From assembly GCA_001785865.1 (NCBI GenBank), contig MFUZ01000006.1:176880-240879 (forward strand): a stretch of 64,000 nt of DNA. The letters are read 5' to 3'. The notes under the pieces were generated by a model that had not been told where the DNA came from, ran no database searches, and saw nothing but the letters and a program-made list of their open reading frames with translations. Every line of letters starts with the position of its first letter. Position 1 is the first letter of the stretch. A program made the translations under genes and the position numbers. Origin of the DNA: Candidatus Nomurabacteria bacterium RIFCSPLOWO2_01_FULL_41_18. GTDB lineage: Bacteria; Patescibacteriota; Minisyncoccia; Phycocordibacterales; UBA9973. Positions 3,708 through 63,769 of the stretch are shown here, in pieces.

Positions 3708-3790
3708 GGTTCGATTTTGCTCACCATGACCCTGAGAATTTATTCGAATGGGTCATAATTAACTATCCGCATATTCGCGCGAATTAGAGA
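3704..3790 (-). promoter_or_regulatory. Conserved leader element with the start codon embedded in a hairpin (copy 1 of 3), plus an upstream ATTCGCGCGAAT palindrome
   Basis: The minus-sense sequence reads ATGACCCATTCGAAtaaattCTCAGGGTCATGGTGAGcaAAAtCGAACCATG, where the final ATG is the map start codon. The arms ATGACCC/GGGTCAT and CATGGT/ACCATG are self-complementary. Almost the same string lies upstream of the CDSs at 56892 and 57451. Confidence 0.5.
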
Positions 3791-3792
3791 TA

Positions 3793-4908
3793 TCAAAAGA
3801 ATTTAACTATGTCATTAAAGGTCACGAGAACCATAAGCAATATCAGGATGCCGAAGCCGATCATATTGGCTGTATTGGCAACTTTCGGATTGATTCGCGA
3901 ACCCTTTATTTTTTCGATTAACAAGAAGAATAGCCGCCCGCCGTCTAGTGCTGGAAATGGCACCAGGTTGATCACCGCTAGGCTTACAGAGATGAGTGCA
4001 GCAAAAGACAATAAATACCCCACTCCTACGTCAAATACGACTCCAGTGACCTTGGCGAGCCCTACAGGGCCTATCACCGATTCGCGTATGGCCTTTGATT
4101 CCGGACCGCCAAAAACAAGCTTTTTGAGCCCTACAATCGTATCTCGAGAGGTAAGCAAGGTGGTTTGCAGGCCATAATTGATTGACTCAAAAAAATTGAA
4201 TTTTCCAGAGATTAAGGTATAAGGCATGATGCCGATCAAAGCTCGCCCGACTTCATCATTAGCTTCTGGAATCAGATCTACTGATTTTTCTTCGCCACTC
4301 CGCAGATAAGATATACGAATCGTTTCTCCTGGCTTGTCGGTAAAAGCGATGAATTCATCCAAGGTCGGCGTTTCCATTTTTTCATTATTTGTCTCTATAG
4401 CAGTCAAGATGTCTCCCGCTTCCAGTCCCGCTTTTTCCGCCGGACTTTTTGACGCCACTCCGAGCACTACTATCTTTTCTGTCATCTGCTCAAGGGCGCC
4501 TTTAGGAATACTGTCAGTCGCAAGCGGAGAACCAATAAAAAGCGTGCTCGCAAACAAGAGCCACGCCAAAAGGAAATTCATAAAGACTCCAGCAAACAAC
4601 ACTATCGCCTGTTTCCATTTCGCTTTATTGTAAAATTTTCTGTCTTCATCTGGGCCATTAGTATTTCTTGCTCCGTCCTTGGCAGGGTCATCATTTGGAT
4701 TCTCACCAAATATTTTAACAAATCCGCCTATGGGCAGGAGGTTTAGACTATATTCAGTTTCTCCAAATTTCTTGCCGAATATTTTAGGTGGGAAACCAAA
4801 ACCAAATTCATCCACGCGGATGCCGAACTTCTTCGCAGTAAAAAAATGTCCGAACTCGTGGACTAGGACCAGCACTAGTAGAATAATTATGAATATAATA
4901 ATTGACAT
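3793..4908 (-). CDS. rseP: RIP zinc metalloprotease (site-2 protease) with PDZ domain
   Basis: HEFGHFF zinc motif in TM1, an internal PDZ-like segment, and C-terminal TM helices. Confidence 0.8.
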   Translation of the reverse strand: MSIIIFIIILLVLVLVHEFGHFFTAKKFGIRVDEFGFGFPPKIFGKKFGETEYSLNLLPIGGFVKIFGENPNDDPAKDGARNTNGPDEDRKFYNKAKWKQAIVLFAGVFMNFLLAWLLFASTLFIGSPLATDSIPKGALEQMTEKIVVLGVASKSPAEKAGLEAGDILTAIETNNEKMETPTLDEFIAFTDKPGETIRISYLRSGEEKSVDLIPEANDEVGRALIGIMPYTLISGKFNFFESINYGLQTTLLTSRDTIVGLKKLVFGGPESKAIRESVIGPVGLAKVTGVVFDVGVGYLLSFAALISVSLAVINLVPFPALDGGRLFFLLIEKIKGSRINPKVANTANMIGFGILILLMVLVTFNDIVKFF

Positions 4909-7931: not shown

Positions 7932-8660
7932 TTATATTTTCTCCGGTATTACCAAAGCCACAGATTCCATCAAGGTCTTAGAGGAACTTCCGGGCATACG
8001 CAAGAATTCACGGACTTTAAAAATGTGCTCAAAAAATCTAGTATCAAAGGGCATCTTTGACATGAACTTATTATGCAAAATAAGTTCTAGCGCATTTAGA
8101 AATTTCAAAGCTTTTGAGCGAGTGGAATCTAAGGCAATAATTTCATTTCCCTCTTCGTCCTCTTCTTCTGATTCAGCTAATAATTCTTTTATAAAATCAA
8201 TTCTTTTTTGCAAAGGCATATTTATAAACTTCTCTACTTCTTTTGTGTCTTCTCCTAATTCCGTAAGGCCTTGCCTTGGGGAGATTACATAAAATCTAGA
8301 AACTAAAGTTTTTAGAAGAGAATTTGTATCTGGCACGACCAGAAAGAAATGTGTATTTTCTATAGGCTCTTCAAACATTTTTAGCAAGACATTCTGCGCA
8401 TCTAAAGAAAAACTATTAACACAAACAACGAAAATTTTTTTAGTAGAAGAGAAACCTTTGTTCGTTGACATCGCACGCAAATCAAACGCCTCATCTATTT
8501 TTAGGTTATCAATTGTGATGTGACAAAAATCAGGATTACCCGAAGTTTTAATACCTAAATCTTCACAAAATCGTAAAATCTCCGGCACAATTTTCTCTCG
8601 TCCTCCTTCTATTAAGTAAGCATGGTGTAAATTATTTTTATCTAAGTGTTTTGAAATCAT
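7932..8660 (-). CDS. holB: DNA polymerase III delta-prime subunit-like (clamp-loader AAA+ fold, no Walker A)
   Basis: HAYLIEG, NVLLKMFEEP (the NALLKTLEEP box) and a SRF-type sensor motif. Confidence 0.65.
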   Translation of the reverse strand: MISKHLDKNNLHHAYLIEGGREKIVPEILRFCEDLGIKTSGNPDFCHITIDNLKIDEAFDLRAMSTNKGFSSTKKIFVVCVNSFSLDAQNVLLKMFEEPIENTHFFLVVPDTNSLLKTLVSRFYVISPRQGLTELGEDTKEVEKFINMPLQKRIDFIKELLAESEEEDEEGNEIIALDSTRSKALKFLNALELILHNKFMSKMPFDTRFFEHIFKVREFLRMPGSSSKTLMESVALVIPEKI

Positions 8661-17819: not shown

Positions 17820-18128
<309 letters not shown>

Positions 18129-19060: not shown

Positions 19061-19388
19061 TTGTTTTTTCTTCAGCCCGAGGCTGATCTGCCTCTGGCAG
19101 AAATTCTTTTTTATATCCCTTTACTTCCTTATAAATTCCGAAGCAAGTGATGCCGAAACCAATAATCAGAAAAATAAAGAACAAAGTCTGGCTTTCTGTA
19201 AAATTGCCCGCTATCAGACCTATAACCAAAGGCAATATAATCCACGAGGTCGTTTTAACATAAAAAACAATAACTGGTTGCCAGTTCATATGCATACAGT
19301 ATAAGGGAAAAACCATCGGGATGCAAATAAAAACAAAAGCCCCAAGCACCTTGTTGTGATTGGAGCCGCGATGATATAAAAAGATCAA
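19047..19388 (-). CDS. Small membrane protein upstream of atpB (AtpI/AtpZ-like position)
   Basis: Three hydrophobic helices. The 3' end of the ORF is coded by the 5'UTR repeat motif. Confidence 0.35.
   Translation of the reverse strand: MIFLYHRGSNHNKVLGAFVFICIPMVFPLYCMHMNWQPVIVFYVKTTSWIILPLVIGLIAGNFTESQTLFFIFLIIGFGITCFGIYKEVKGYKKEFLPEADQPRAEEKTNGNK
19068..19108 (-). promoter_or_regulatory. Two-hairpin 5'UTR motif (copy 2) immediately upstream of the atpB start
   Basis: Sense: AATTTCTGCCAGAGGCAGATCAGCCTCGGGCTGAAGAAAAAAcaaATG. Confidence 0.5.
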
Positions 19389-38284: not shown

Positions 38285-39001
38285 ATGGCTAAGCTAATAT
38301 TTTTTGATACGGAGACCACGGGCAATGAACAGAAGGACTCCCTATGCCAAATTGCTTATAAAAGTGGTGATGAAAGTTTTACTGGCCTTTACAAGCCTCC
38401 ACTAAAAATTCCACCCGAAGCTTCTGCTGTACACCATATAACCAATAAGATGGTCGCCGACAAACCATCTTTTGCTGAAAGTGGGGATTTGTCTAAAATT
38501 AAAAAACTTTTTGAAGATAAAGACATCGTCGTCGTGGCTCACAACGCGCCTTTTGATTTGATGATAGTCGAAAAAGAAGGAATCAAGCCGCAAAAATTTA
38601 TTTGCACTTTACGGGTTGCCAGACATTTAGACCCAGAGGGAAAAATAGAAAGATATAACTTACAATATTTGCGTTACTTACTCGAAATAGAAATAGATGC
38701 CACTGCTCATGACGCGCTTGGTGATGTGTTGGTCTTAGAAAAACTTTTTGAGCGATTGAAAAATAAATTAATTCAGAGCGAGAATGTAAGCGAAGATGAA
38801 GCGATAAATAAAATGATTGAAATCTCTTCGCACCCTTCACTTCTGCGTTCATTCAACTTTGGCAAACATACTGGTAAAAAAATAGAAGAAGTAGCGAAAG
38901 TAGATAGAGGCTATCTGGAATGGCTACTAGCCCAAAAACTCGAAAGCGATCAAATAGATGAGGATTGGATTTATACGTTGAAACATTATTTGGGGAAATA
39001 A
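38285..39001 (+). CDS. DnaQ-like 3'-5' exonuclease with a C-terminal DUF3820-like domain
   Basis: Exo I FFDTETTG, Exo II VVAHNAPFDL, and C-terminus KHTGKKIEEVAKVDRGYLEWLL. Confidence 0.75.
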   Translation: MAKLIFFDTETTGNEQKDSLCQIAYKSGDESFTGLYKPPLKIPPEASAVHHITNKMVADKPSFAESGDLSKIKKLFEDKDIVVVAHNAPFDLMIVEKEGIKPQKFICTLRVARHLDPEGKIERYNLQYLRYLLEIEIDATAHDALGDVLVLEKLFERLKNKLIQSENVSEDEAINKMIEISSHPSLLRSFNFGKHTGKKIEEVAKVDRGYLEWLLAQKLESDQIDEDWIYTLKHYLGK

Positions 39002-39004
39002 TCA

Positions 39005-39052
39005 CCACCCCCTACCCCCGCCTTAATCAAGGAGGGGGTTAGGGGGTGGTAA
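39005..39052 (+). terminator. G/C-rich hairpin CCACCCCCTACCCCC...GGGGGTTAGGGGGTGG
   Basis: Imperfect 15-bp stem immediately after the stop codon. Confidence 0.5.
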
Positions 39053-39074
39053 TTCTGAATTCGGAAGGAAAAAC

Positions 39075-39106
39075 TTGACAATAGCTGTGTGTGTGTGTGT
39101 TAAATT
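39075..39106 (+). promoter_or_regulatory. TTGACA promoter with a (TG)7 dinucleotide tract in the spacer (20-nt spacer to TAAATT)
   Basis: ttgaca-atagc-(tg)7t-taaatt. Losing one or two TG units would give 18 or 16 nt, close to the optimal 17-nt spacing (candidate slipped-strand switch). Confidence 0.4.
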
Positions 39107-39140
39107 TTCAATCGAAAAGAAAACCCAACGAAAGGCTGTT

Positions 39141-39350
39141 ATGCTAGTACAAATTGTAAGTGCCCCTACAGGTTTAAGTTTGGTGGGAATAATGCACGTA
39201 GGTGCAGTCCACACCGGCAAGGCAATCGTCTGTATTAATGAACAACAAGGTTTGTTGGAAATTCACAACGGAGACGACAACGACCTTAAGACGTTGCGAG
39301 AAAAGGCAAGAATCACCTTGCAACAAGTTCCCAGCGAAAAAAGAGTGTGA
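39141..39350 (+). CDS. Small hypothetical protein (69 aa)
   Basis: RBS aaagg is 6 nt upstream. It is followed by repeated terminator module A. Confidence 0.35.
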   Translation: MLVQIVSAPTGLSLVGIMHVGAVHTGKAIVCINEQQGLLEIHNGDDNDLKTLREKARITLQQVPSEKRV

Positions 39351-39371
39351 AAAAGTGTGCATTCTGCCGCT

Positions 39372-39420
39372 TGTGAGGAGCCGAGCTTCCACAGGCGGCT
39401 TCTTATTTTTATTTAAATAA
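39372..39420 (+). terminator. Repeated terminator module (copy A): GCCGCTTGT-loop-ACAGGCGGC plus TTCTTATTTTTATTT
   Basis: About 55 nt, almost identical to 40525-40580. Confidence 0.65.
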
Positions 39421-39447
39421 ATGTGGTAAAATAAATTGGAAACTTGA

Positions 39448-39481
39448 TTACCTAACTTTTCCGACCGGTAGAGTTAGGTAA
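39448..39481. repeat. 34-bp palindrome TTACCTAAC-N16-GTTAGGTAA (copy 1), overlapping the 3' end of the PaaX-like CDS
   Basis: Perfect 9-bp arms. It codes the last 9 residues (LPNSTGRKS) and the stop codon. Confidence 0.65.
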
Positions 39482-40087
39482 ATTGAAAGTTTTTCGCAAA
39501 TGCCAATCATTTTCTAATTTTTCTACTATCATATACAAAACATCTTTTCCTATCTTAAAATCCGCTTTTAATAAAGAAATCAGATCCTCGCAATCATACG
39601 GATATAGCCAGACACTATTTTGAAGCCGAATAAAGCCTATTTGAGAAAGTGTTTGCCTTAAAAGAAATCTGGTTTTACTCCTTGATTCTTTTATATCAAA
39701 AATAACTACCCTCCAACGACCATCCCATTTTTTTGGAATTTTTAATTTAAAATTATGCTTATCAAGAAAATCCAACTTACTTTCCCCTTTCCTTGTAATA
39801 CGGGCAACTTTTTTCCCATTTATTTCAATTATTTCAATAAAGCCTTTTTCTCTAAGACGTGTAAAGGAATCATTTATGGAGTACTTTAAATTCTTTTTTC
39901 TTTTAAAAGAACTCTCAAGTTTTTTAATAGCTGATAAAACATTGGGAGCAACCAGAGCAACTCCAAGCATGCCAGCGGTAAAAACTGTGTTTAAAATTAT
40001 TTTTTGAATATTTTTGCGTTTATCCTTCTTTTTGATTTCTTGTTCTAAATTTCCCATATATTGATAACTACGTAAATTATAATCCAC
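39452..40087 (-). CDS. PaaX-family transcriptional regulator-like protein
   Basis: N-terminal winged-helix region (RLREKGFIEI...ARITRKGESKL). C-terminal WDGRWRVVIFDIKESRSKTRFLLRQTLSQIGFIRLQNSVWLYP matches the PaaX_C pattern. Confidence 0.55.
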   Translation of the reverse strand: MDYNLRSYQYMGNLEQEIKKKDKRKNIQKIILNTVFTAGMLGVALVAPNVLSAIKKLESSFKRKKNLKYSINDSFTRLREKGFIEIIEINGKKVARITRKGESKLDFLDKHNFKLKIPKKWDGRWRVVIFDIKESRSKTRFLLRQTLSQIGFIRLQNSVWLYPYDCEDLISLLKADFKIGKDVLYMIVEKLENDWHLRKTFNLPNSTGRKS

Positions 40088-40097
40088 AAATATAAAA

Positions 40098-40131
40098 TTA
40101 CCTAATTATTCCGACCGGTAGAGTTAGGTAA
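40098..40131. repeat. 34-bp palindrome TTACCTAAT-N16-GTTAGGTAA (copy 2), 11 nt upstream of the PaaX-like start codon
   Basis: Differs by one base from copy 1. It is a candidate operator. Confidence 0.65.
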
Positions 40132-40211
40132 TTTAGCAAAGTAAAAAATTGACACCTTACGCCTGAAGTGTTAGTTTTTAAGGGATAATCAACTAGTTCA
40201 CCAAAGGACAT

Positions 40212-40511
40212 ATGAAACAAAATGAAAAAGAAGTTACTGTTGTCGCAGACTGCACGAGTTGCGACGGCACTGGACTCTTTGGGTTTCGAGACAAACTCGG
40301 AGTTACCTGTTGGGATTGTGAAGGCAGTGGAAAAATGTCCATAACTTACACACCCTTCATCGAGCGAAAATTACGCCACGAGTGGCAAATCACAGAGGTA
40401 TGCCAAAGAAGTTCCCTCAGTATGAGATTGGGAACACCCATCAGCTACAAGGAGTTCCTGGAGGGTAAGTTCCCTGAGACACCTATCGAACCAGAAATAC
40501 CCAAAGATTAG
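40212..40511 (+). CDS. Small protein with two DnaJ-type CxxCxGxG zinc-finger motifs
   Basis: CTSCDGTG and CWDCEGSG. It has its own TTGACA promoter (40149-40178) and terminator module B. Confidence 0.5.
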   Translation: MKQNEKEVTVVADCTSCDGTGLFGFRDKLGVTCWDCEGSGKMSITYTPFIERKLRHEWQITEVCQRSSLSMRLGTPISYKEFLEGKFPETPIEPEIPKD

Positions 40512-40524
40512 TGTGCGTAATTGC

Positions 40525-40580
40525 CGCTTGTAGGAAGCCGAGCTTCCACAGGCGGCTTCTTATTTTTATTTAAAATGCTA
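40525..40580 (+). terminator. Repeated terminator module (copy B)
   Basis: gccgcttgtaggaagccgagcttccacaggcggcttcttatttttatttaaa. Confidence 0.65.
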
Positions 40581-40590
40581 AAATACTCTT

Positions 40591-41640
40591 ATGCAAATTC
40601 TTTGGATAATATTAGCTTTAGTTGCAGGAGTAACAATTGCCTATTTTGCTTTTGGGCGTAGAAAAGAAGAAAAGAAAGATGATAGTTTGGGGTTAAATTT
40701 AATACTCACTCAAATAAACGAACTTTCCAGAACTGTAGACAATAAAATCGGAGAATCGCATAAACAAGTCAACGAAAGTTTGAAATTCCATTCTAGCGAA
40801 TCAAATAAAATTATTAGAGATGTTACAGAAAGATTGACCAGATTGGACGAGACAAATAAACAAGTCATTTCTTTTGCAGACCAATTGCAAAGTTTGGAAA
40901 ATATTTTAAAGAATCCGAAACAACGCGGAATTCTCGGTGAATATTATTTAGAAACAGTTTTAAAAAATGTCCTTCCTCCCGGTAGCTACCAAATGCAATA
41001 CGAATTTGAAGATAAAACTATTGTGGACGCTGTAGTTTTCGTAAAAGATAAAATTATTCCCATAGACTCAAAATTCTCTCTGGAAAATTATAATAAAATG
41101 GTGGAAGAAAGGGATGCCGTAGAAAAGAAAAGACTAGAAGCAATCTTTGTGGGAGACTTAAAAAATAGAATCACTGAAACTGCAAAATATATTCAGCCAA
41201 CAAAAGGCACTACTGATTTTGCTTTTATGTTTATCCCCCACGAAGCTATTTATTATGATTTGCTCACAAATAAAGTGGGCGCGTTGGCATCGGAAGAAAA
41301 TGAGAACTTGATCCAACGCGCGGCAGGAAAATATAAAGTCATCATCACCTCCCCCACTTCATTCCTCGCATATTTGCAAACTGTCTTGCAAGGATTGAAG
41401 GCACTCAAAATAGAAGAATCCGCGAAAGAAATAATTAAAAAAGTGGAAGATTTGGGAAAACATTTAAAATCTTACGACGAATATCATAATAAACTCGGGA
41501 ATGCGCTCGGCACTGTGGTGAACCATTACAATGCTTCCAATAAGGAATTGAAGAAAATAGACAAGGATGTGCTCCGGATTGCTGGATCATCGCCGGAATT
41601 GGCATTATTAGAAGTCGAAAAACCCCGCCCGAACGACTGA
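40591..41640 (+). CDS. rmuC: DNA recombination protein RmuC
   Basis: N-terminal TM helix, a long coiled coil, and a C-terminal RmuC nuclease-like domain. It ends in TGA. Confidence 0.8.
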   Translation: MQILWIILALVAGVTIAYFAFGRRKEEKKDDSLGLNLILTQINELSRTVDNKIGESHKQVNESLKFHSSESNKIIRDVTERLTRLDETNKQVISFADQLQSLENILKNPKQRGILGEYYLETVLKNVLPPGSYQMQYEFEDKTIVDAVVFVKDKIIPIDSKFSLENYNKMVEERDAVEKKRLEAIFVGDLKNRITETAKYIQPTKGTTDFAFMFIPHEAIYYDLLTNKVGALASEENENLIQRAAGKYKVIITSPTSFLAYLQTVLQGLKALKIEESAKEIIKKVEDLGKHLKSYDEYHNKLGNALGTVVNHYNASNKELKKIDKDVLRIAGSSPELALLEVEKPRPND

Positions 41641-42277: not shown

Positions 42278-42769
42278 ATGACCAAAAAAATAGTATTAGC
42301 AGGAGGATGTTTTTGGGGACTCCAGGATTTGATCCGGAAACAGACGGGTGTGATACAGACGCGCGTAGGCTATACCGGCGGCAAAATCATCAATCCTACC
42401 TACACAAACCATGAAGGCCATGCGGAGGCTGTGGAAATAGAATATGACACAGAAAAAACTTCTTACAAAAATCTGCTGGATTTTTTCTTTCAAATCCACA
42501 ATCCTACAACATTGAACCAGCAAGGCAACGACCGAGGCACTTCTTACCGTTCAGCTATTTTTTATGGTAGCGATGAAGAGAAAAAGGAAGCCCAGAATTT
42601 CATAGACATCGTGAATAAGTCAAAAAGATGGAAAGACCCCGTCGTCACCACCCTTGAGCCTTTGGATAAATTTTATCTTGCCGAAGATTATCACCAAGAT
42701 TATCTAGAAAAGAATCCGGGTGGCTACACCTGCCACGCTATTTATTTTGATAGCTATTTGAAACCATAA
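42278..42769 (+). CDS. msrA: Peptide methionine sulfoxide reductase MsrA
   Basis: GCFWG active-site motif. Confidence 0.9.
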
Positions 42770-42853
42770 ATTCCCTATTCGCCTATTCGCGCGAATTAGA
42801 GAATAGAAAAGCTGGGCTGTGATTATACGTATATGAATACGTATAAAGTCGTG

Positions 42854-42925
42854 TGACCCTACGCGGAATCGGACCGCGATTTAAGCCTTGAGAAGGCCTT
42901 GTCCTAACCGTTAGACGATAGGGCC
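42854..42925 (-). tRNA. tRNA-Glu (anticodon CUC)
   Basis: rc = GGCCCTATCGTCTAACGGTTAGGACAAGGCCTTCTCAAGGCTTAAATCGCGGTCCGATTCCGCGTAGGGTCA. It folds as a cloverleaf. Confidence 0.8.
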
Positions 42926-50931: not shown

Positions 50932-50935
50932 ATTT

Positions 50936-50990
50936 TTCAGCCTGAAGCTGATACTCCTTCAAAGGCGGACACAGCGCCTCCAGAGGAAAG
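50936..50990 (-). promoter_or_regulatory. Two-hairpin 5'UTR motif (copy 3) immediately upstream of the lysS start
   Basis: Sense: ...GTCCGCCTTTGAAGGAGTATCAGCTTCAGGCTGAAAAATATATG. Confidence 0.45.
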
Positions 50991-56816: not shown

Positions 56817-56894
56817 TGTGACCCTTCTAAATAATCAGGCCTTCGCTCTGAGACTCAGGCTCGAAGAGGTCATGGTGAGTAAAACCGAACCATG
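56817..56894 (+). promoter_or_regulatory. Start-codon-embedding leader element (copy 2 of 3), expanded form
   Basis: TGACCC...CTCAGGcTCgaagaGGTCATGGTGAGtaAAAcCGAACCATG. The final ATG is the CDS start. Confidence 0.5.
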
Positions 56895-57401
56895 AAAAAT
56901 CCAAAAAAACTATATATTGAAACAATTATTTTATTATTTTTTTGTGTTGTTATATTTTTTGTATATACAAAAGAAGAGAAAATCACCACCCCGTCTCAAG
57001 TAAAAACCGAAGCTCCCCTCCTTGATAAGGAGGGGGTTCCGGCTGGTAATTTAAAAAAGAACCACCTCGCCTCTGGCACTCCTCCTCAACAAGGAAGAGA
57101 GGAAACTATCCCAGAAAATACTCAATCTGCAACTGTCCTAGCTGGAGAAATGAACATAAATTTATCATTTCTCCCAAATACTATTTTCTATGATGCACTC
57201 ATACAAGCAAGAGATGCTAATAAAATAACATTTTCCGGTAAAAATTATCCTGGGCTTGGATTTTTTGTAACCGACATCGGCACCCTGCATGCAGGCAGTA
57301 GAAAATACTTGATTTATTACATTAATGGGAAGGAGGCGACCGTCGGCGTCTCGGCTTATACACTCAAAAAGGGCGACGTCATCGAGTGGAAATTGGAATA
57401 A
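56892..57401 (+). CDS. Secreted protein with a C-terminal DUF4430-like domain
   Basis: Signal-anchor MKNPKKLYIETIILLFFCVVIFFVY. C-terminus GFFVTDIGTLHAGSRKYLIYYINGKEATVGVSAYTLKKGDVIEWKL. Confidence 0.5.
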   Translation: MKNPKKLYIETIILLFFCVVIFFVYTKEEKITTPSQVKTEAPLLDKEGVPAGNLKKNHLASGTPPQQGREETIPENTQSATVLAGEMNINLSFLPNTIFYDALIQARDANKITFSGKNYPGLGFFVTDIGTLHAGSRKYLIYYINGKEATVGVSAYTLKKGDVIEWKLE

Positions 57402-57402
57402 C

Positions 57403-57453
57403 ATGACCCATTCGAGAAAACCTCAGGGTCATGGTGAGTATAATCGAACCATG
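57403..57453 (+). promoter_or_regulatory. Start-codon-embedding leader element (copy 3 of 3), with a perfect TATAAT 7 nt before the ATG
   Basis: ATGACCCATTCGAGaaaacCTCAGGGTCATGGTGAGtaTAAtCGAACCATG. It starts 2 nt after the upstream stop codon. Confidence 0.55.
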
Positions 57454-59526
57454 ACAAATATATTAAAATTGAGTTTGTTGTGTCTGATGGTGTTTAGTTT
57501 TACTGTAAATATTTATGCAGAAGATACTGAAATAGTTGATCCAGAACCAGTACTCCCTCCAGCCGAAATTCCTCTAGATCCAATTCCAGATCCCGTGCCA
57601 GAACCTGATCCAGCACCAACAGTTACATTTATAATTAGAAATGGTGATACATTGATCTACCAAGACACAACCCCTCTTCCTGACATAGAAAATGATAGAA
57701 ATGTATTATCAGTTTTGCAATCTATTGATGAATCAAGTGATGCATTTTCTATAACAAACATTCAAGAATTTTCTTTCGGTAAATATTTAAAATGCATATT
57801 ACCAACTGATGCGACAGAGCTATGCGACAATTGGCAATACGCCGTCGGAAATTTGACGCCTTTCTCGAGCATAGATACTACAATGCTCGTAGGCGGCGAA
57901 ACAGTAGGCATATATTTCGGCACATCGCACCAGCTCGTCTTGAGCAACGAACGCATTACTGAAGGCGGATCATTGACTGCCACTGCTCAAAAATATAATT
58001 ATGAAACCAACGCATGGGATATATTGGAAGGTGTCTCCGTGGGCGTGACCCTGCCAAATCCCGATGACGCCTGGAATCCGATAGTGGTCTCGACCCACCC
58101 TGTCGATGATGTGGGAATAGCAACTATCACCATCGCCGAAGAAAACACATTCACACTCGGCATCGTGGAAGATTTTTACTTTCCTTCATACACCGTAGTC
58201 GTCGAAAAATCCGAAGAAGACGGCGAAAATGGAAGCGAGAATGAGGGAACGAACGGAAGCAACCCTACCCCACACTCTTTCAGCACCGCAGACGCTTTGT
58301 CGTATCTGAAAAGCATGCAAAGCGAAGACGGATCATTCGGAGACTCCGATCTGTACACAGACTGGGCAGGAATTGCTTTTGGATCTATGAATGTAGGCGG
58401 AAGTTCAAAAACTAAAATTCTTTCTTATTTTGAATCTAATAACGAAATTAGTTCCCTTTTGACCGACAATGAAAGGCGTGCGATGACACTTCTCGCGCTT
58501 GATAAAAATCCATATTCTTTTGGTGATGATGAAGTAAATTACATAAAAGCTATTGTGGATGAGTTTGATGGTGAACAGTTTGGTGATGCAGACTTAGTTA
58601 ATGATGATATTTTTGCTTTGATTCCACTTCAAAATGCTGGTTACAATGAAAACGACGATATGATTATAGAAGACATCACTTTTATAATTTCAAAACAAAA
58701 AAGTAACGGCTCATGGGAAGAAAGCGTAGACGTCACAGCGGCAGCTATCCAAGCACTTGAAGCTTTTGATGGAGTAGATGGGGTTTCAAATGCACTCTCG
58801 CAAGCAAGTGCTTATCTCGAAAATGAACAAAACAGTGACGGTGGTTGGGGTAATGTTTCTTCTACAAGTTGGGCAATGCAAGCAGAAAGTGCGCTAAATA
58901 CGTCATGGTCAAAAAATGGAAAAGATGGACTTGATTATCTAGCGACAGGGCAAGAAGAAGACGGCGCAGTTTCCCCTACCGAAGAGACACTTGAAAATCG
59001 CATTTGGGCAACGAGTTATGCAGTTGCCGGAGCTTCGGGAAAGTCATGGGGTGAAATTATGAATTCAGTTTCAAAACCATCAAATCAAGAAGAGAATTCT
59101 GGGAATAATAATGAAAATGATTCAGATGATGAAAATGATTCTAGAGATGACACAGAAGATGAAATAGAGGATGTTGCTCCAGAAGAAACCCAAATTAAAA
59201 CAGTTGTCTGCCCTGTCGGAGATTTTTTTAACGCGACGACTGGAGAGTGGTGCACCGAATTTGTGGTGATAAATAATCCACCAATTATTAAACAAGAAAC
59301 AAAAATAGTAAAAAAAATAGAGATAGTGGAAACTCTAGCGGAAGAAAAAACATTAGGAGAACAAACTTTAACAACAACAGAGACCCTGACAGCAACAGCT
59401 ATCGGTACATTACCTACCGAGCAAAGTGTGCCACCGGAAAAAACTTCCAGTACGACCCCGATTGTTCTCGGAACTCTCGGAGGAATCGTTCTTCTTTATA
59501 TTGCCGCTAAGTTTTTGATCAAATAA
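57451..59526 (+). CDS. Large surface protein with an N-terminal DUF4430-like region, prenyltransferase/squalene-oxidase-type alpha-alpha toroid repeats, an acidic linker, and a Thr-rich C-terminal anchor (TM plus basic tail)
   Basis: The likely true start is MTNILKLSLLCLMVFSFTVNIYA (a signal peptide). The track ORF starts 42 codons earlier and runs through the leader element. Repeats: SEDGSFGDSD..., QKSNGSWEES..., EQNSDGGWGN... and GQEEDGAVSP.... C-terminus ...TLPTEQSVPPEKTSSTTPIVLGTLGGIVLLYIAAKFLIK. Confidence 0.6.
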   Translation: MTNILKLSLLCLMVFSFTVNIYAEDTEIVDPEPVLPPAEIPLDPIPDPVPEPDPAPTVTFIIRNGDTLIYQDTTPLPDIENDRNVLSVLQSIDESSDAFSITNIQEFSFGKYLKCILPTDATELCDNWQYAVGNLTPFSSIDTTMLVGGETVGIYFGTSHQLVLSNERITEGGSLTATAQKYNYETNAWDILEGVSVGVTLPNPDDAWNPIVVSTHPVDDVGIATITIAEENTFTLGIVEDFYFPSYTVVVEKSEEDGENGSENEGTNGSNPTPHSFSTADALSYLKSMQSEDGSFGDSDLYTDWAGIAFGSMNVGGSSKTKILSYFESNNEISSLLTDNERRAMTLLALDKNPYSFGDDEVNYIKAIVDEFDGEQFGDADLVNDDIFALIPLQNAGYNENDDMIIEDITFIISKQKSNGSWEESVDVTAAAIQALEAFDGVDGVSNALSQASAYLENEQNSDGGWGNVSSTSWAMQAESALNTSWSKNGKDGLDYLATGQEEDGAVSPTEETLENRIWATSYAVAGASGKSWGEIMNSVSKPSNQEENSGNNNENDSDDENDSRDDTEDEIEDVAPEETQIKTVVCPVGDFFNATTGEWCTEFVVINNPPIIKQETKIVKKIEIVETLAEEKTLGEQTLTTTETLTATAIGTLPTEQSVPPEKTSSTTPIVLGTLGGIVLLYIAAKFLIK

Positions 59527-61144: not shown

Positions 61145-61741
61145 ATGACTAAAAAAGAAGAACTAGAGAATTTACATAATAAATGGAAACAAGAATGCTC
61201 GTGCGAACTTAAAAAAACAGCCACGCAGGCAGTGCCAGGGGCTGGCAGCCCTGATGCAGAGATAGTCTTTATCGGAGAAGCGCCAGGAAAGAAGGAAGAC
61301 GAACTCGGAATCCCATTTGTCGGATCTGCGGGGAAATTCTTGGACGAAATGCTAGGGTTGATAAATTTAAAAAGAGAAGATATATACATCACAAACGTAG
61401 TAAAGTACCGCCCGCCAAACAATCGCGATCCTAGCCCCGAAGAAAAAAGTGCCTGCCGAGAATGGCTCTTGGAAGAGCTTAAAATAATTTCCCCAAAACT
61501 CATAATCTTCCTCGGGCGTCATGCAATGAACAATTTCTTTCCAGAACTCCAGATATCCGGCGCGCATGGTAAATTATTAATCAAATCTTTCAAAGATATA
61601 TCTACAAAATATTTCTTCCCTCTTTATCATCCAGCAGCTGCTCTGTATGACGGCTCTATGCGTGAAACTTTAAAAGACGATTTTAAAAAAATTCCGAAAG
61701 TCTTGAAGGAGATAGAGAAACGTGAAGAAAAAGCAAATTAG
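61145..61741 (+). CDS. udg: Uracil-DNA glycosylase, family 4
   Basis: GEAPGKKEDELGIPFVGSAGKFLD motif (GE[AG]PG...G.PF.G.AG). Confidence 0.8.
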   Translation: MTKKEELENLHNKWKQECSCELKKTATQAVPGAGSPDAEIVFIGEAPGKKEDELGIPFVGSAGKFLDEMLGLINLKREDIYITNVVKYRPPNNRDPSPEEKSACREWLLEELKIISPKLIIFLGRHAMNNFFPELQISGAHGKLLIKSFKDISTKYFFPLYHPAAALYDGSMRETLKDDFKKIPKVLKEIEKREEKAN

Positions 61742-62511
61742 TGTATAATCTTGAGACAATGTCAGATAAAATAAAAATCGTAATTTTAGCGGCGGGCAAG
61801 GGCAAAAGGATGCAAAGCGCACTGCCGAAGGTTTTGATTCCCTTCAAAAATAAACCCCTAATTTTCCATGTTCTGGATAGCGTAAAAAAATCCGGAGTGG
61901 ATCACAGGCCGACGATCGTCGTTGGACAACAGCGTGAATTGGTGATGAAAACCCTCGGAAATGATTACAATTATATAATACAAGAAGACCAGAAAGGCAC
62001 CGGGCACGCAGTCATCATCGCCCAAAAAACTCTAGAGAATGATGCAGATCACATAGTCGTGCTTTATGGAGACCACCCTTTTGTAAGTCCGGAAACCATA
62101 AAAAAATTAGTGCAGAAACATTTGGACTCTCACGGAAAAATAACATTGGCAACAGTCAAGCTTCCAGACTTCGAGGATTGGCGATCAGTGTTTGCTAAAA
62201 GTTTTTCCCGCATCATTAGAGACGAAAATGAAAATATAATAAAAGATGTACAGTATAAAGATACAACTCTCGAAGAGAGAAAAGTGACTGAAGTAAATCC
62301 ATGCTATTTTTGTTTCGAAGCAAAATGGCTTTGGGAGAAACTTAAAACCTTAAATACAAATAATGCTCAAAAGGAATATTATCTGACTGATTTAGTAAAA
62401 ATAGCTATGCAAGAAAAAATAAAAATAGCATCAATAAATATAGATCCAAAAGAAGCTTTGGGTGTAAACTCTAAAGAAGAATTGGAAGTATTAAATAATT
62501 TGGCAATATAA
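61741..62511 (+). CDS. Sugar nucleotidyltransferase (GlmU N-terminal-like, lacking the acetyltransferase domain)
   Basis: LAAGKGKRMQSALPKVL and YGDHPF motifs. The probable start is MSDKIKIV (61762). Confidence 0.65.
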   Translation: MYNLETMSDKIKIVILAAGKGKRMQSALPKVLIPFKNKPLIFHVLDSVKKSGVDHRPTIVVGQQRELVMKTLGNDYNYIIQEDQKGTGHAVIIAQKTLENDADHIVVLYGDHPFVSPETIKKLVQKHLDSHGKITLATVKLPDFEDWRSVFAKSFSRIIRDENENIIKDVQYKDTTLEERKVTEVNPCYFCFEAKWLWEKLKTLNTNNAQKEYYLTDLVKIAMQEKIKIASINIDPKEALGVNSKEELEVLNNLAI

Positions 62512-62518
62512 TCATCAT

Positions 62519-63769
62519 ATGCATCCCCCACACAATCCATTTGAAAACGCGATGGCCCAGCTCGACCTCGCCGCAAAGCTAAGAAACTTTGACGACAGTT
62601 TTATTGACAGCCTGAGGGAACCGAACCGCGACATCAGAGTCTCGATCAAAGTAAAAATGGATAATGGGGGGACGGAAATATTTGAAGGATATCGGGTGGA
62701 ATACAACAATTCCCTCGGGCCCTACAAGGGCGGAATAAGGTATCATCCTAAAACAGAGATAAATGAAGTGAAGGCTCTCGCCTTCTGGATGACGCTCAAA
62801 TGCGCCGTAGTAGGCATCCCGATGGGCGGAGGCAAAGGCGGAATAACTGTCGAGCCAAAAAATTTATCAAAATCGGAATTAGAGAGACTTTCCCGCGGGT
62901 GGGTAGAGAGCCTTTCTGACGTCTTGGGGCCATACAAGGACATCCCTGCTCCGGATATAAACACTACTCCGGAGATAATGGCGTGGATGGCAGATGAATT
63001 TGCAAAAATATCCGGCGACAAAACTCTCGCCACCTTTACCGGCAAACCGATGGCGAAAGGAGGCTCAGAGGGGCGAAATGAAGCCACCGGCCTAGGCGGG
63101 TTTTACGTTTTAGAAACACTACGCAAAGAAATAGGATTACCGGAAAAATGCGAGGTAGCTATCCAAGGATTTGGAAACGTGGGCAGTAATGCGGCGAAAA
63201 TTTTTATTGATCATGGGCATAAAGTGACAGCCGTTTCAGATTCTCAAAGCGGAATTTATAACCCGAACGGTCTCGATATCAAAAAAGTCTTGGAATTTAA
63301 AAAAAATACCGGAACCCTATTAAATTTTTCAAAAGAAAATCCGGAATGTAAGAACATTACCAACGAAGAACTCCTTGAATTGCCTTGTGATATTCTCATC
63401 CCGGCCGCCTTTGAAAATGTCATCACCGGCTCTAACGCCGACAAAATACAGGCACGAGCGATTCTGGAGCTCGCTAATGGGCCGGTCACTCCGGAAGCGG
63501 ACGAGATCCTATTTAAAAAAAACATCCCCGTCATACCGGACATATTGGCCAATGCTGGCGGAGTGACAGTGTCTTATTTTGAATGGGAGCAAAATCTAAA
63601 GGGTGAGCATTGGACACCAGAGCAAATTTTTGAAAAATTAAGACCAATAATGGAAACCGCTTCCAGTGAAATATTTAACAAAGCCAAAGATGTCAATACT
63701 TCTCTCCGCATGGGAGCTTTTATAGTGGCTCTTGAAAGAATTCAGCGAAAAAAATTAAGTAGCATTTAG
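62519..63769 (+). CDS. gdhA: Glutamate dehydrogenase
   Basis: GPYKGGIRYHP and GGGKGG motifs, and a C-terminal Rossmann motif GFGNVG. Confidence 0.9.
   Translation: MHPPHNPFENAMAQLDLAAKLRNFDDSFIDSLREPNRDIRVSIKVKMDNGGTEIFEGYRVEYNNSLGPYKGGIRYHPKTEINEVKALAFWMTLKCAVVGIPMGGGKGGITVEPKNLSKSELERLSRGWVESLSDVLGPYKDIPAPDINTTPEIMAWMADEFAKISGDKTLATFTGKPMAKGGSEGRNEATGLGGFYVLETLRKEIGLPEKCEVAIQGFGNVGSNAAKIFIDHGHKVTAVSDSQSGIYNPNGLDIKKVLEFKKNTGTLLNFSKENPECKNITNEELLELPCDILIPAAFENVITGSNADKIQARAILELANGPVTPEADEILFKKNIPVIPDILANAGGVTVSYFEWEQNLKGEHWTPEQIFEKLRPIMETASSEIFNKAKDVNTSLRMGAFIVALERIQRKKLSSI

Follow-up and report, generated by a model that had tools for sequence, protein, structure and literature searches.

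A PaaX-like regulator gene in Patescibacteria is bracketed by two copies of one palindrome, its probable operator, and flanked by two slots of small-gene turnover

We analyzed a 64,000-nucleotide stretch of DNA from Candidatus Nomurabacteria bacterium RIFCSPLOWO2_01_FULL_41_18 (contig MFUZ01000006.1; hereafter the window), in which the gene for a PaaX-like regulator, here called PaaXl, lies on the minus strand at 39452-40057 between two copies of one palindrome. The upstream copy (pal_U, 40098-40131) separates the regulator promoter from the divergent promoters of the small gene ORF2 and rmuC, and we propose it as an autoregulatory operator. The downstream copy (pal_D, 39448-39481) covers the end of the regulator gene, namely its nine final codons (LPNSTGRKS) and the stop, and is a candidate second operator. 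The left neighbor of this region is an exoX-like gene with RNase_T and ExoX-like_C domains, which ends at 39001, and the right neighbor is rmuC, with its ATG at 40591; these matches bear out the DnaQ-like exonuclease and RmuC named in an earlier note on this DNA. All elements listed in that note are present, at coordinates correct to within a few bases.

Each of the two intervals that separate the regulator from its neighbors, which we term the downstream (exoX-side) and upstream (rmuC-side) slots, holds one small gene on the plus strand. At its left edge, immediately past the exoX-like stop codon, the downstream slot has a G-rich hairpin with a 20-bp stem (38997-39057, plus strand; -39.4 kcal/mol, z = -6.2). 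This hairpin is followed by a promoter module (39075-39106) with a -35 element TTGACA at 39075-39080, a (TG)7 run at 39086-39099 and TGT-TAAATT at 39098-39106, by open reading frame (ORF) 1 (39141-39350), encoding a small cassette protein of 69 amino acids that we assign to family 1, and by an intrinsic terminator module (copy 1, 39365-39417; hairpin -26.3 kcal/mol, z = -4.5, with a T-rich tail). The 3′ end of the ORF1 cassette carries TGTGGTAAAAT (39422-39432, plus strand), a copy of the extended -10 element of rmuC. In the upstream slot, the promoter module (40149-40177; TTGACA at 40149-40154, a 17-nt spacer, and TGT-TAGTTT at 40169-40177) precedes ORF2 (40212-40511), which encodes a small zinc-ribbon protein of 99 amino acids with two CxxCxGxG motifs, and terminator copy 2 (40522-40574; hairpin -25.9 kcal/mol, z = -3.6). 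The extended -10 element of rmuC itself, TGCTAAAAT (40576-40584, plus strand), is retained between this terminator and the rmuC ATG.

The two best repeats of the whole window both lie in this region. One is the terminator module, which follows each small gene as the earlier note had described: a direct repeat of 53 nt with 94% identity (39365-39417 and 40522-40574), each copy of which forms a 15-bp bulged hairpin followed by TTCTTATTTTTATTT. Because the hairpin is bulged, a consensus terminator scan misses both modules; the same scan does not call the palindromes. Searches against known RNA families gave no match, and Rfam at a permissive E-value on 38900-40700 returned only chance hairpin matches. 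The second repeat is the palindrome (39447-39484 and 40097-40134; 38 nt, 92% identical), and the previously described pattern TTACCTAA(C/T)-N16-GTTAGGTAA is indeed found at both places. Its arms of 8-9 bp are separated by 16 nt, with the dyad extending to 16-nt arms about a 2-nt center, and the pattern occurs exactly twice in 64 kb even at three mismatches (0.07 expected by chance). The promoters had also been described as duplicated; both do combine TTGACA with a TG-extended weak -10, but they form no detectable repeat within the window, and a simple consensus promoter scan calls neither.

The regulator gene had been read from a GTG at 40087. We find the ATG at 40057 more likely, since homologues are all about 201 amino acids long and begin MG(N/I)LE, and since a conserved TATAAT at 40076-40081 lies downstream of that GTG; the coding sequence is therefore probably 39452-40057, with 201 codons. 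No exact database record exists for the 211-amino-acid form that starts at the GTG, while the 201-amino-acid form is on record, and 201 is the length of most of those listed among 950 homologues. The TATAAT is the -10 element of the regulator promoter (minus strand), and the corresponding -35 position (about 40099-40104) falls inside pal_U. Consequently pal_U, which had been placed 11 nt from the start, is 40 nt from the ATG and covers the -35 position.

Assignment of this protein to the PaaX family holds at the level of its central domain. Residues 119-190 match PaaX_M (PF20803; E = 1.2e-18, 67.4 bits vs a cutoff of 24), a domain precomputed in nearly all of 120 listed homologues. We detected no match to the Pfam PaaX N-terminal domain at E ≤ 0.1 and none to PaaX_C, and the protein ends about 10 residues past the Cas2-like domain. 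The full-length PaaX model TIGR02277 aligns residues 62-163 with model positions 38-137 (E = 3e-7, 30.1 bits vs a cutoff of 264.55), and a profile alignment to the PDB entry 8A39, E. coli PaaX (residues 58-116), was weak (E = 0.1); this partial PaaX alignment takes in the recognition helix, the wing and the WDG-W linker. In an AlphaFold 2 model with a mean predicted local distance difference test score (pLDDT) of 55, residues 58-100 form a helix, a beta-hairpin and a helix at pLDDT 50-57. A Foldseek search with the model gave 8A39 as the best PDB match, followed by many Cas2 structures, the latter with target-normalized TM-scores of 0.5-0.68. These comparisons describe a putative winged helix-turn-helix (wHTH) domain joined to a Cas2-like PaaX_M domain, and mark PaaXl as a PaaX-like domain relative rather than a PaaX orthologue. 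No paa genes were found among the neighbors or in 40 further ORFs of the window.

PaaXl homologues are often named “CRISPR-associated endonuclease Cas2” in databases, because the score against the cas2 model TIGR01573 lies just above the cutoff (26.0 bits vs 24.5), a marginal and partial match that covers about 38 residues (115-152). The protein does carry a “VVIFDI” beta-1 motif, and 34 homologues all have Asp121, the residue at the Cas2 catalytic position. We found no cas genes, cas1 included, within ±6 kb or among the 40 further ORFs, no interspaced repeat array in the window, and no literature report joining PaaX with Cas2. Viral sequence collections contained neither a PaaXl homologue nor a match to the palindrome, and origin of PaaXl as a prophage repressor is thus unsupported.

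We collected the corresponding loci of relatives from genome and metagenome collections, obtaining 57 loci of the Nomura clade, 29 of them distinct and containing both gene ends. Because the loci were retrieved through PaaXl itself, the sample consists of sites that carry the gene, and empty sites were not recoverable. Throughout the Nomura clade, wherever the surroundings can be read, a homologue with 71-95% identity is flanked by rmuC and the exoX-like gene in unchanged orientation, and yqeY, MYG1 and obg follow farther out; in locus L021 and its near-identical copies, exoX was not detected adjoining the regulator gene. The divergence of PaaXl resembles that of its neighbors (71-93% identity for RmuC, 65-82% for ExoX), and its genomic context differs in distant lineages. 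An integrase or recombinase, which the earlier note had suggested looking for, was not found within ±6 kb or among the 40 further ORFs, nor was a transposase; those ORFs are housekeeping genes or lack a Pfam match (seven cases). These data suggest that the regulator is a vertically inherited, fixed core gene and not a cassette. Locus L014 also encodes a second, divergent PaaX_M paralogue of a different subfamily (8213-8606, plus strand), about 3.6 kb from the first and after obg; no comparable palindrome is present in the 140 nt upstream of it, and its 3′ end lies off the locus.

Conservation extends to both palindromes. In every one of the 29 distinct Nomura-clade loci, pal_U and pal_D occupy the same positions: pal_U 21-58 nt before the ATG, over the -35 element, and pal_D over the last nine codons and the stop, so that the protein tail LPNSTGRKS* is the translated palindrome. 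TATAAT or TATAAT-like boxes are found at the same spacing in L011-L014 and most other loci of the clade. We then compared the 130 nt upstream of the gene with the stop-proximal 180 nt in 72 distinct loci from Nomurabacteria, Adlerbacteria, Kaiserbacteria and other Paceibacteria (38-100% protein identity), taking an ungapped match score of at least 13 as a shared element. The bracket was present in 62 of the 72 loci, with a median score of 21; two within-gene control segments gave 0/72, with a maximum of 11. The distance between the centers of the two copies is 574-746 bp (median 639), essentially the length of the gene.

The distant homologues (38-57% identity; Adlerbacteria, Kaiserbacteria and other Paceibacteria) have palindromes of quite different sequence, as in ATATTCAAA..ACGACCGT..TTTGAATAT, TACATTAA..GCTATAGC..TTAATGTA and GTACTTATAACAGCTATAGCTGTTATAAGTAC. 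The upstream copy there ends at the ATG or a few bases from it, with a -10-like hexamer six bases upstream, a placement from which the transcript should be leaderless and the operator should cover the -10 element and the start. The matching copy begins 0-67 nt past the stop, and in L047 and L113 the two copies of the locus are identical. The 3′ copy is present both where the next gene is convergent (ThrRS, TyrRS, exoX) and where it is co-directional (dnaE, NUDIX, membrane proteins), which argues that it belongs to the regulator unit and not to the promoter of the neighbor. Our comparison thus indicates that a regulator gene bracketed by two copies of one palindrome is the conserved arrangement across the PaaXl protein family.

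Sequence variation within the Nomura clade suggests that the pair is functional. The two copies of one locus resemble each other more than they resemble copies of other loci (self U-D identity 29.4/34 vs non-self 27.3/34; permutation p = 1e-4), symmetric changes at the center distinguish CCGGTCGG, GCGGTCGC and ACGGTCGT, and in L023 the arms are changed in both copies. At the same time, some differences between pal_U and pal_D are stable across species (AATAATTAGG vs AAAAGTTAGG), which suggests that the copies are conserved separately and not merely homogenized. Synonymous codon identity is 0.87 under pal_D vs 0.59 in the rest of the gene, and the top five 10-codon windows for synonymous conservation all overlap pal_D; this excess indicates selection on the DNA (or RNA) itself. 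Between subfamilies, the putative recognition-helix motif varies with the class of palindrome, a correlation confounded by phylogeny.

These observations bear on the idea that the second copy is a functionless by-product of duplication or gene conversion, and the islet simply an intergenic region that was recently rearranged. Duplication or homogenization within the locus does occur, as judged from the terminator modules, which are more alike within one genome than between genomes. A pair maintained in most loci over very deep divergence, with excess synonymous conservation beneath pal_D and stable copy-specific differences, is not what such a process would leave, and we regard this explanation as highly improbable. 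We also found no single rearrangement, whether a simple inversion or an unequal crossover between the palindromes, that leads from a layout like that of L015 or L026 to that of the window.

The main rival to a role in protein binding is a structural one, in which the palindromes act as nucleic acid and binding by PaaXl is irrelevant: pal_D as a bidirectional hairpin terminator, insulator or stabilizer of mRNA ends at a convergent junction, and pal_U as a cruciform-prone element in the divergent promoter region. RNA folds of both copies are moderately stable (for pal_D, -15.3 and -20.7 kcal/mol on the two strands, z about -4), the symmetric compensatory changes preserve pairing, and in L018 and L024, where the regulator and exoX converge 4 nt apart, pal_D is the only structure between the genes. 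Yet a hairpin requires self-complementarity only, not sequence identity with a copy in the promoter that is kept across lineages at 38-92% protein identity. The upstream copy, moreover, lies over the -35 or -10 element, upstream of or at the transcription start, where its presence in RNA would not be expected. Mismatches interrupt the AT-rich stems, and T content is no higher after the 3′ copy (4.8/12) than after the 5′ copy (4.2/12), so pal_D is unlikely to be a classical intrinsic terminator. We therefore judge a purely structural role unlikely.

A further proposal, raised in part by the earlier note, is that the palindromes are recombination sites, either of an attC- or dif-like type or as the ends of a selfish palindrome-gene-palindrome unit on which the Cas2-like protein acts, making the flanks a hot spot of cassette capture. 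The arms ACCTAAC and GTTAGGT fit the attC core RYYYAAC / GTTRRRY (chance of a 7-mer about 1e-3) in the window and in most loci of the Nomura clade, the repeats, in the manner of transposon ends, have evolved together with the gene between them, they abut the ORF exactly in several lineages, Asp121 is invariant at the Cas2 catalytic position, the flanks are hypervariable with modules that have moved between slots, and the wider context changes among distant lineages. However, the unit is fixed between rmuC and exoX wherever this could be read in the Nomura-clade loci recovered, it has diverged like its neighbors, and no further copy of it exists in 64 kb; the searches for integrases or transposases and for viral homologues or sites were negative, as described above. 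The attC-like fit is confined to this clade; it is lost in L023 and not seen in the palindromes of other lineages. The near-perfect 34-bp dyads are shorter than the 57-141 bp of attC, they bracket the regulator rather than the variable genes, which have promoters and terminators of their own, and cassette boundaries do not coincide with them (gaps of 17-70 nt). Taken together, the idea that the palindromes mark attC-type cassette boundaries is not supported, and a recombination function of any kind appears very improbable.

One specific version, to which we give slightly less credence still, would have the wHTH domain target the Cas2-like domain, with its invariant Asp, to both palindromes, where it would nick or remodel DNA and turn the flanking slots into a site that captures and shuffles promoter-ORF-terminator mini-genes. 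If true, this would be a new, integrase-free cassette system in the candidate phyla radiation (CPR), perhaps relevant to how a Cas2-like protein came to act at palindromic repeats.

On balance, we favor the reading that both palindromes are operators of PaaXl. The comparative evidence supports the earlier suggestion of an autoregulatory operator for pal_U, through its position and its conservation with the gene. It likewise supports a second operator for pal_D, whose position is kept, whose sequence co-varies with that of pal_U and with the protein subfamily, and which shows DNA-level constraint within coding sequence. PaaXl would then be an autoregulated mini-PaaX, made up of a wHTH and a Cas2-like dimerization domain, and its ~34-bp operator would be present on both sides of its gene, with PaaXl dimers predicted to bind both copies. 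A dimer bound at pal_U, over the -35 element (in other lineages over the -10 element and the leaderless start), would exclude RNA polymerase and so repress the gene directly. The 3′ site may be bound by the same protein cooperatively with the first, closing a loop of ~640 bp around the gene; alternatively or additionally, it may serve as a roadblock at the gene end, cutting transcription short or insulating it. For the Nomura clade, and for lineages with a site that abuts the stop, RNA polymerase would thereby be halted ahead of the stop codon, as LacI halts it at lacO3, and between the convergent genes of L018 and L024 an occupied site would insulate each gene from the other.

Several points weigh against this proposal. 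Recognition of the palindrome by PaaXl rests throughout on comparative inference, the co-variation is partly confounded by phylogeny, and symmetric compensatory changes would equally be expected of a hairpin or cruciform. In 10 of the 72 loci, the ungapped test detected no second copy within 130 nt. The N-terminal 65 residues of the structure model have a pLDDT of 30-40, and with the model poor at the N-terminus, assignment of the wHTH domain depends on weak sequence alignments (E about 0.1 to 3e-7). The lack of a third palindrome copy in 64 kb means that no regulon is visible beyond the locus, and a regulator that regulates solely itself is odd. Finally, the distance from pal_U to the -35 element of the adjacent cassette varies from ~17 to 70 nt, which makes direct, phased control of cassette promoters by PaaXl doubtful.

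In contrast to the fixed regulator, the small genes on either side vary from one species to the next. In the Nomura clade, the rmuC-side slot measures 107-1077 nt and, when empty, contains only the two divergent promoters and pal_U; the exoX-side slot measures 4-801 nt, and its empty form is 4 nt. Empty slots are common, and filled ones hold more than 15 mutually unrelated families of small ORFs; Pfam gave no match for 10 cassette proteins taken from relatives. Between L012 and L013, families 2 and 3 have exchanged sides, and at least one slot, on the rmuC side of L011 (3506-4000), contains a frameshifted remnant of a family-2 ORF with promoter and terminator modules intact. The earlier description of the region as a cassette-like islet therefore fits the small genes, for which relatives have empty, differently filled or swapped slots, and does not fit the regulator, which is fixed between rmuC and exoX. 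That note had treated a locus conserved and syntenic in all relatives, with no extra palindrome copies and no variability, as evidence against a cassette; we find the regulator unit conserved, syntenic and free of extra copies, but the flanking small genes highly variable.

ORF1 illustrates movement between slots: it lies on the exoX side in the window, and its homologues (44-49% identity) lie in the rmuC-side slot of L015, L026, L049 and L057. Neither Pfam nor NCBIfam matches ORF1, and a word-index search returned only the protein itself. Terminator copy 1 is 89% identical to the terminator of the upstream-slot cassette of L026, and positions 409-491 of the downstream slot in the window match positions 459-541 of the upstream slot in L026 (89% over 83 nt), where the stretch runs into the start of rmuC. 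The match thus spans the terminator-rmuC junction of L026, and at its 3′ end the ORF1 cassette still carries the copied extended -10 element of rmuC. In relatives, the element TG(C/T)TAAAAT immediately precedes rmuC whether the slot is filled or empty. The displaced copy in the window (39422-39432) faces pal_D and the antisense strand of the regulator, and could drive antisense transcription. The G-rich hairpin at 38997-39057, which occurs once in the window, has a near-identical counterpart in the other slot of L015 and L049, between the cassette terminator and the rmuC -10 element, a distribution that identifies it as a shuffled module.

Unrelated cassettes share non-coding modules. The promoter and 5′ untranslated region comprise T(T/A/G)GACA, a TG-rich spacer, TGTGTTA(A/G)nTTTT and CGAAAGG, and the core pattern T[TAG]GACA-N-TGnTA.. 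is present in 14 of 30 filled slots of relatives, at 0.81 per kb vs a background of 0.048 per kb (~17-fold). For ORF1, the spacer reaches 19-20 nt because of the (TG)7 run; in several related cassettes the TG run is shorter and the spacer measures ~17 nt. Phase variation at this run is unsupported, as six metagenome contigs of the same species are 100% identical and contain no length variants. From species to species, the non-coding modules have been kept better than the ORFs between them, and the two terminators within one genome are nearly identical, a likeness that points to homogenization or duplication within the locus. Many cassettes of relatives also have a small hairpin between stop and terminator, with stem GGGTC/GACCC and loop CATCTCACGA (for example L012 4606-5190, L013 4606-5095, L017 3523-4000 and L014 4606-4860); it is absent from the two cassettes of the window. 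Cassettes have a GC content of 0.44 vs 0.32-0.38, exceeding all flanking genes in 24 of 30 filled slots.

ORF2 matches DnaJ_CXXCXGXG and anti-TRAP weakly. It belongs to a widespread zinc-ribbon family, for which a HMMER search found 169 relatives, mostly of about 85-100 amino acids and 35-48% identical, in clusters whose records are unnamed, and a word-index search returned only ORF2 itself. No other locus of our set has a relative of ORF2 in its upstream slot. A homologue with 44% identity is located in L128 (3001-3297) by a tRNA gene and a NUDIX-GDH-NTP_transferase block, an unrelated context with different signals. The end of the window (61741-63769) is itself an NTP_transferase-GDH region, and the ancestral location of the ORF2 family may therefore lie just beyond it. 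PADLOC detected no defense-system match for ORF1 or ORF2.

In our model, each cassette consists of a promoter module, an ORF of 60-130 codons and a terminator module, GC-richer than the host DNA, and cassettes would be gained, lost, pseudogenized and moved between the two slots. The shared promoter and terminator modules probably mediate this exchange through homologous recombination, as opposed to site-specific events at the palindromes. Both small genes of the window show the features of autonomous units: a promoter and a terminator of their own, atypical composition, and presence or absence between conserved flanks. The simplest reading is that the two slots form a hot spot of autonomous, moron-like micro-genes; searches of viral collections revealed no prophage context or phage link.

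Elsewhere in the window, we noted four features separate from this locus. An ORF of 785 codons (573-2930) matches the N- and C-terminal domains of D-Ala-D-Ala ligase twice each and looks like a tandem Ddl fusion. A 43-nt direct repeat with 81% identity (3757-3799 and 42769-42811) contains the palindrome TATTCGCGCGAATA and may represent a further family of operators or terminators; one of its copies closely follows msrA and is near a tRNA gene (42854-42925). A 42-nt repeat with 83% identity (56868-56909 and 57427-57468), GGTCATGGTGAGTA.AA.CGAACCATGA, is a candidate shared regulatory element, found at the start of a DUF4430 gene and near the start of the adjacent ORF of 733 codons. The hairpin motif TTTTTCAGCCTGAGGCTGAT appears at 18069-18095, 19068-19094 and 50933-50959 near gene ends (ATP synthase region, lysS/greA), and is probably a recurrent terminator-like element.

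Regulators of CPR/Patescibacteria are almost entirely uncharacterized, and the PaaXl family is routinely mis-annotated as “CRISPR-associated endonuclease Cas2”. Our analysis predicts a sequence-defined operator for each subfamily, and the conserved two-operator bracket may represent a compact autoregulatory or insulating design. At its core, this arrangement belongs with known systems in which an autoregulated repressor also has an auxiliary operator; new are the family-wide, co-evolving palindrome bracket of the regulator gene, absorbed into coding sequence in one clade, and the adjacent two-slot cassette hot spot. As a chromosomal site of species-specific small-protein turnover with reusable promoter and terminator modules, this hot spot would offer a handle on micro-gene exchange in ultra-small genomes. 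Should the ordinary reading alone be true, the locus would still provide a useful re-annotation and a clean natural example of an auxiliary operator at the 3′ end of a gene.

Among known systems, Cas2 shares with PaaXl the ferredoxin-like fold and the “VVIFDI” beta-1 motif with its invariant Asp at the catalytic position. PaaXl differs from Cas2 in its fusion to a putative wHTH domain, in a match limited to ~38 residues, and in the lack of cas1 or a CRISPR array in the window. In integrons, an attC site, an imperfect palindrome of 57-141 nt, follows each promoterless cassette ORF. The palindromes of the PaaXl locus resemble attC in being imperfect, in arms that fit RYYYAAC / GTTRRRY and in adjoining small variable genes, whereas they measure 34 bp, bracket an invariant gene and fit the consensus in one clade only; no IntI was found, and the cassettes carry their own promoters and terminators. 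By this comparison, the locus is not an integron. Parallels to the cassettes are phage morons and the minimal mobile elements of Neisseria, which are exchanged between conserved flanking genes; minimal mobile elements occur in naturally transformable bacteria. Like these, the cassettes stand alone, each with a promoter and an intrinsic terminator of its own and an atypical GC content, and different cassettes, or none, occupy the same interval in different species. The cassettes described here differ in that no prophage is present, the two slots flank a regulator, and modules are shared among unrelated cassettes and are better conserved than the ORFs.

For the regulator, one parallel is phage lambda, where the operator regions OL and OR flank the CI repressor gene region and cooperative looping between them sharpens autoregulation. 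The lambda operators are multipartite, 2.4 kb apart and follow octamer/tetramer logic in a phage, whereas the PaaXl sites are single palindromes ~640 bp apart in a chromosomal housekeeping context. PaaX of E. coli W (8A39) is another: its recognition helix, wing and “WDG-W” linker are colinear with those proposed for PaaXl and are likewise followed by a Cas2-like central domain. PaaXl has 201 amino acids vs 316, lacks the C-terminal domain for the ligand phenylacetyl-CoA, and has no paa genes nearby. We know of no description of a second operator at the 3′ end of the paaX gene. The E. coli protein recognizes a pair of inverted half-sites, TGATTC-N27-GAATCA, and shuts down its own promoter by keeping RNA polymerase away (PMC9493321). 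The predicted PaaXl operator has the same plan of inverted half-sites with a long spacer, 16 nt here vs 27 nt in PaaX, and occlusion of RNA polymerase is also what we propose for the PaaXl promoter.

The lac system provides the precedent for an operator at the 3′ end of a repressor gene. Like pal_D, the auxiliary operator O3 overlaps the end of the repressor's own coding region. Work by Abo et al. in 2000 is said to have described tagging of the truncated LacI product by transfer-messenger RNA (tmRNA); we found no literature report joining the LacI roadblock with tmRNA. LacI bound at O3 acts as a roadblock that stops transcription of its own gene before the stop codon (PMC3711431). Cooperative looping between O1 and O3 likewise has its counterpart in the loop that we propose between pal_U and pal_D. 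Unlike at the PaaXl locus, however, the promoter-proximal partner in lac controls the neighboring operon and not the lacI promoter; the two PaaXl sites together bracket the regulator gene itself, and this pairing is kept across the whole protein family.

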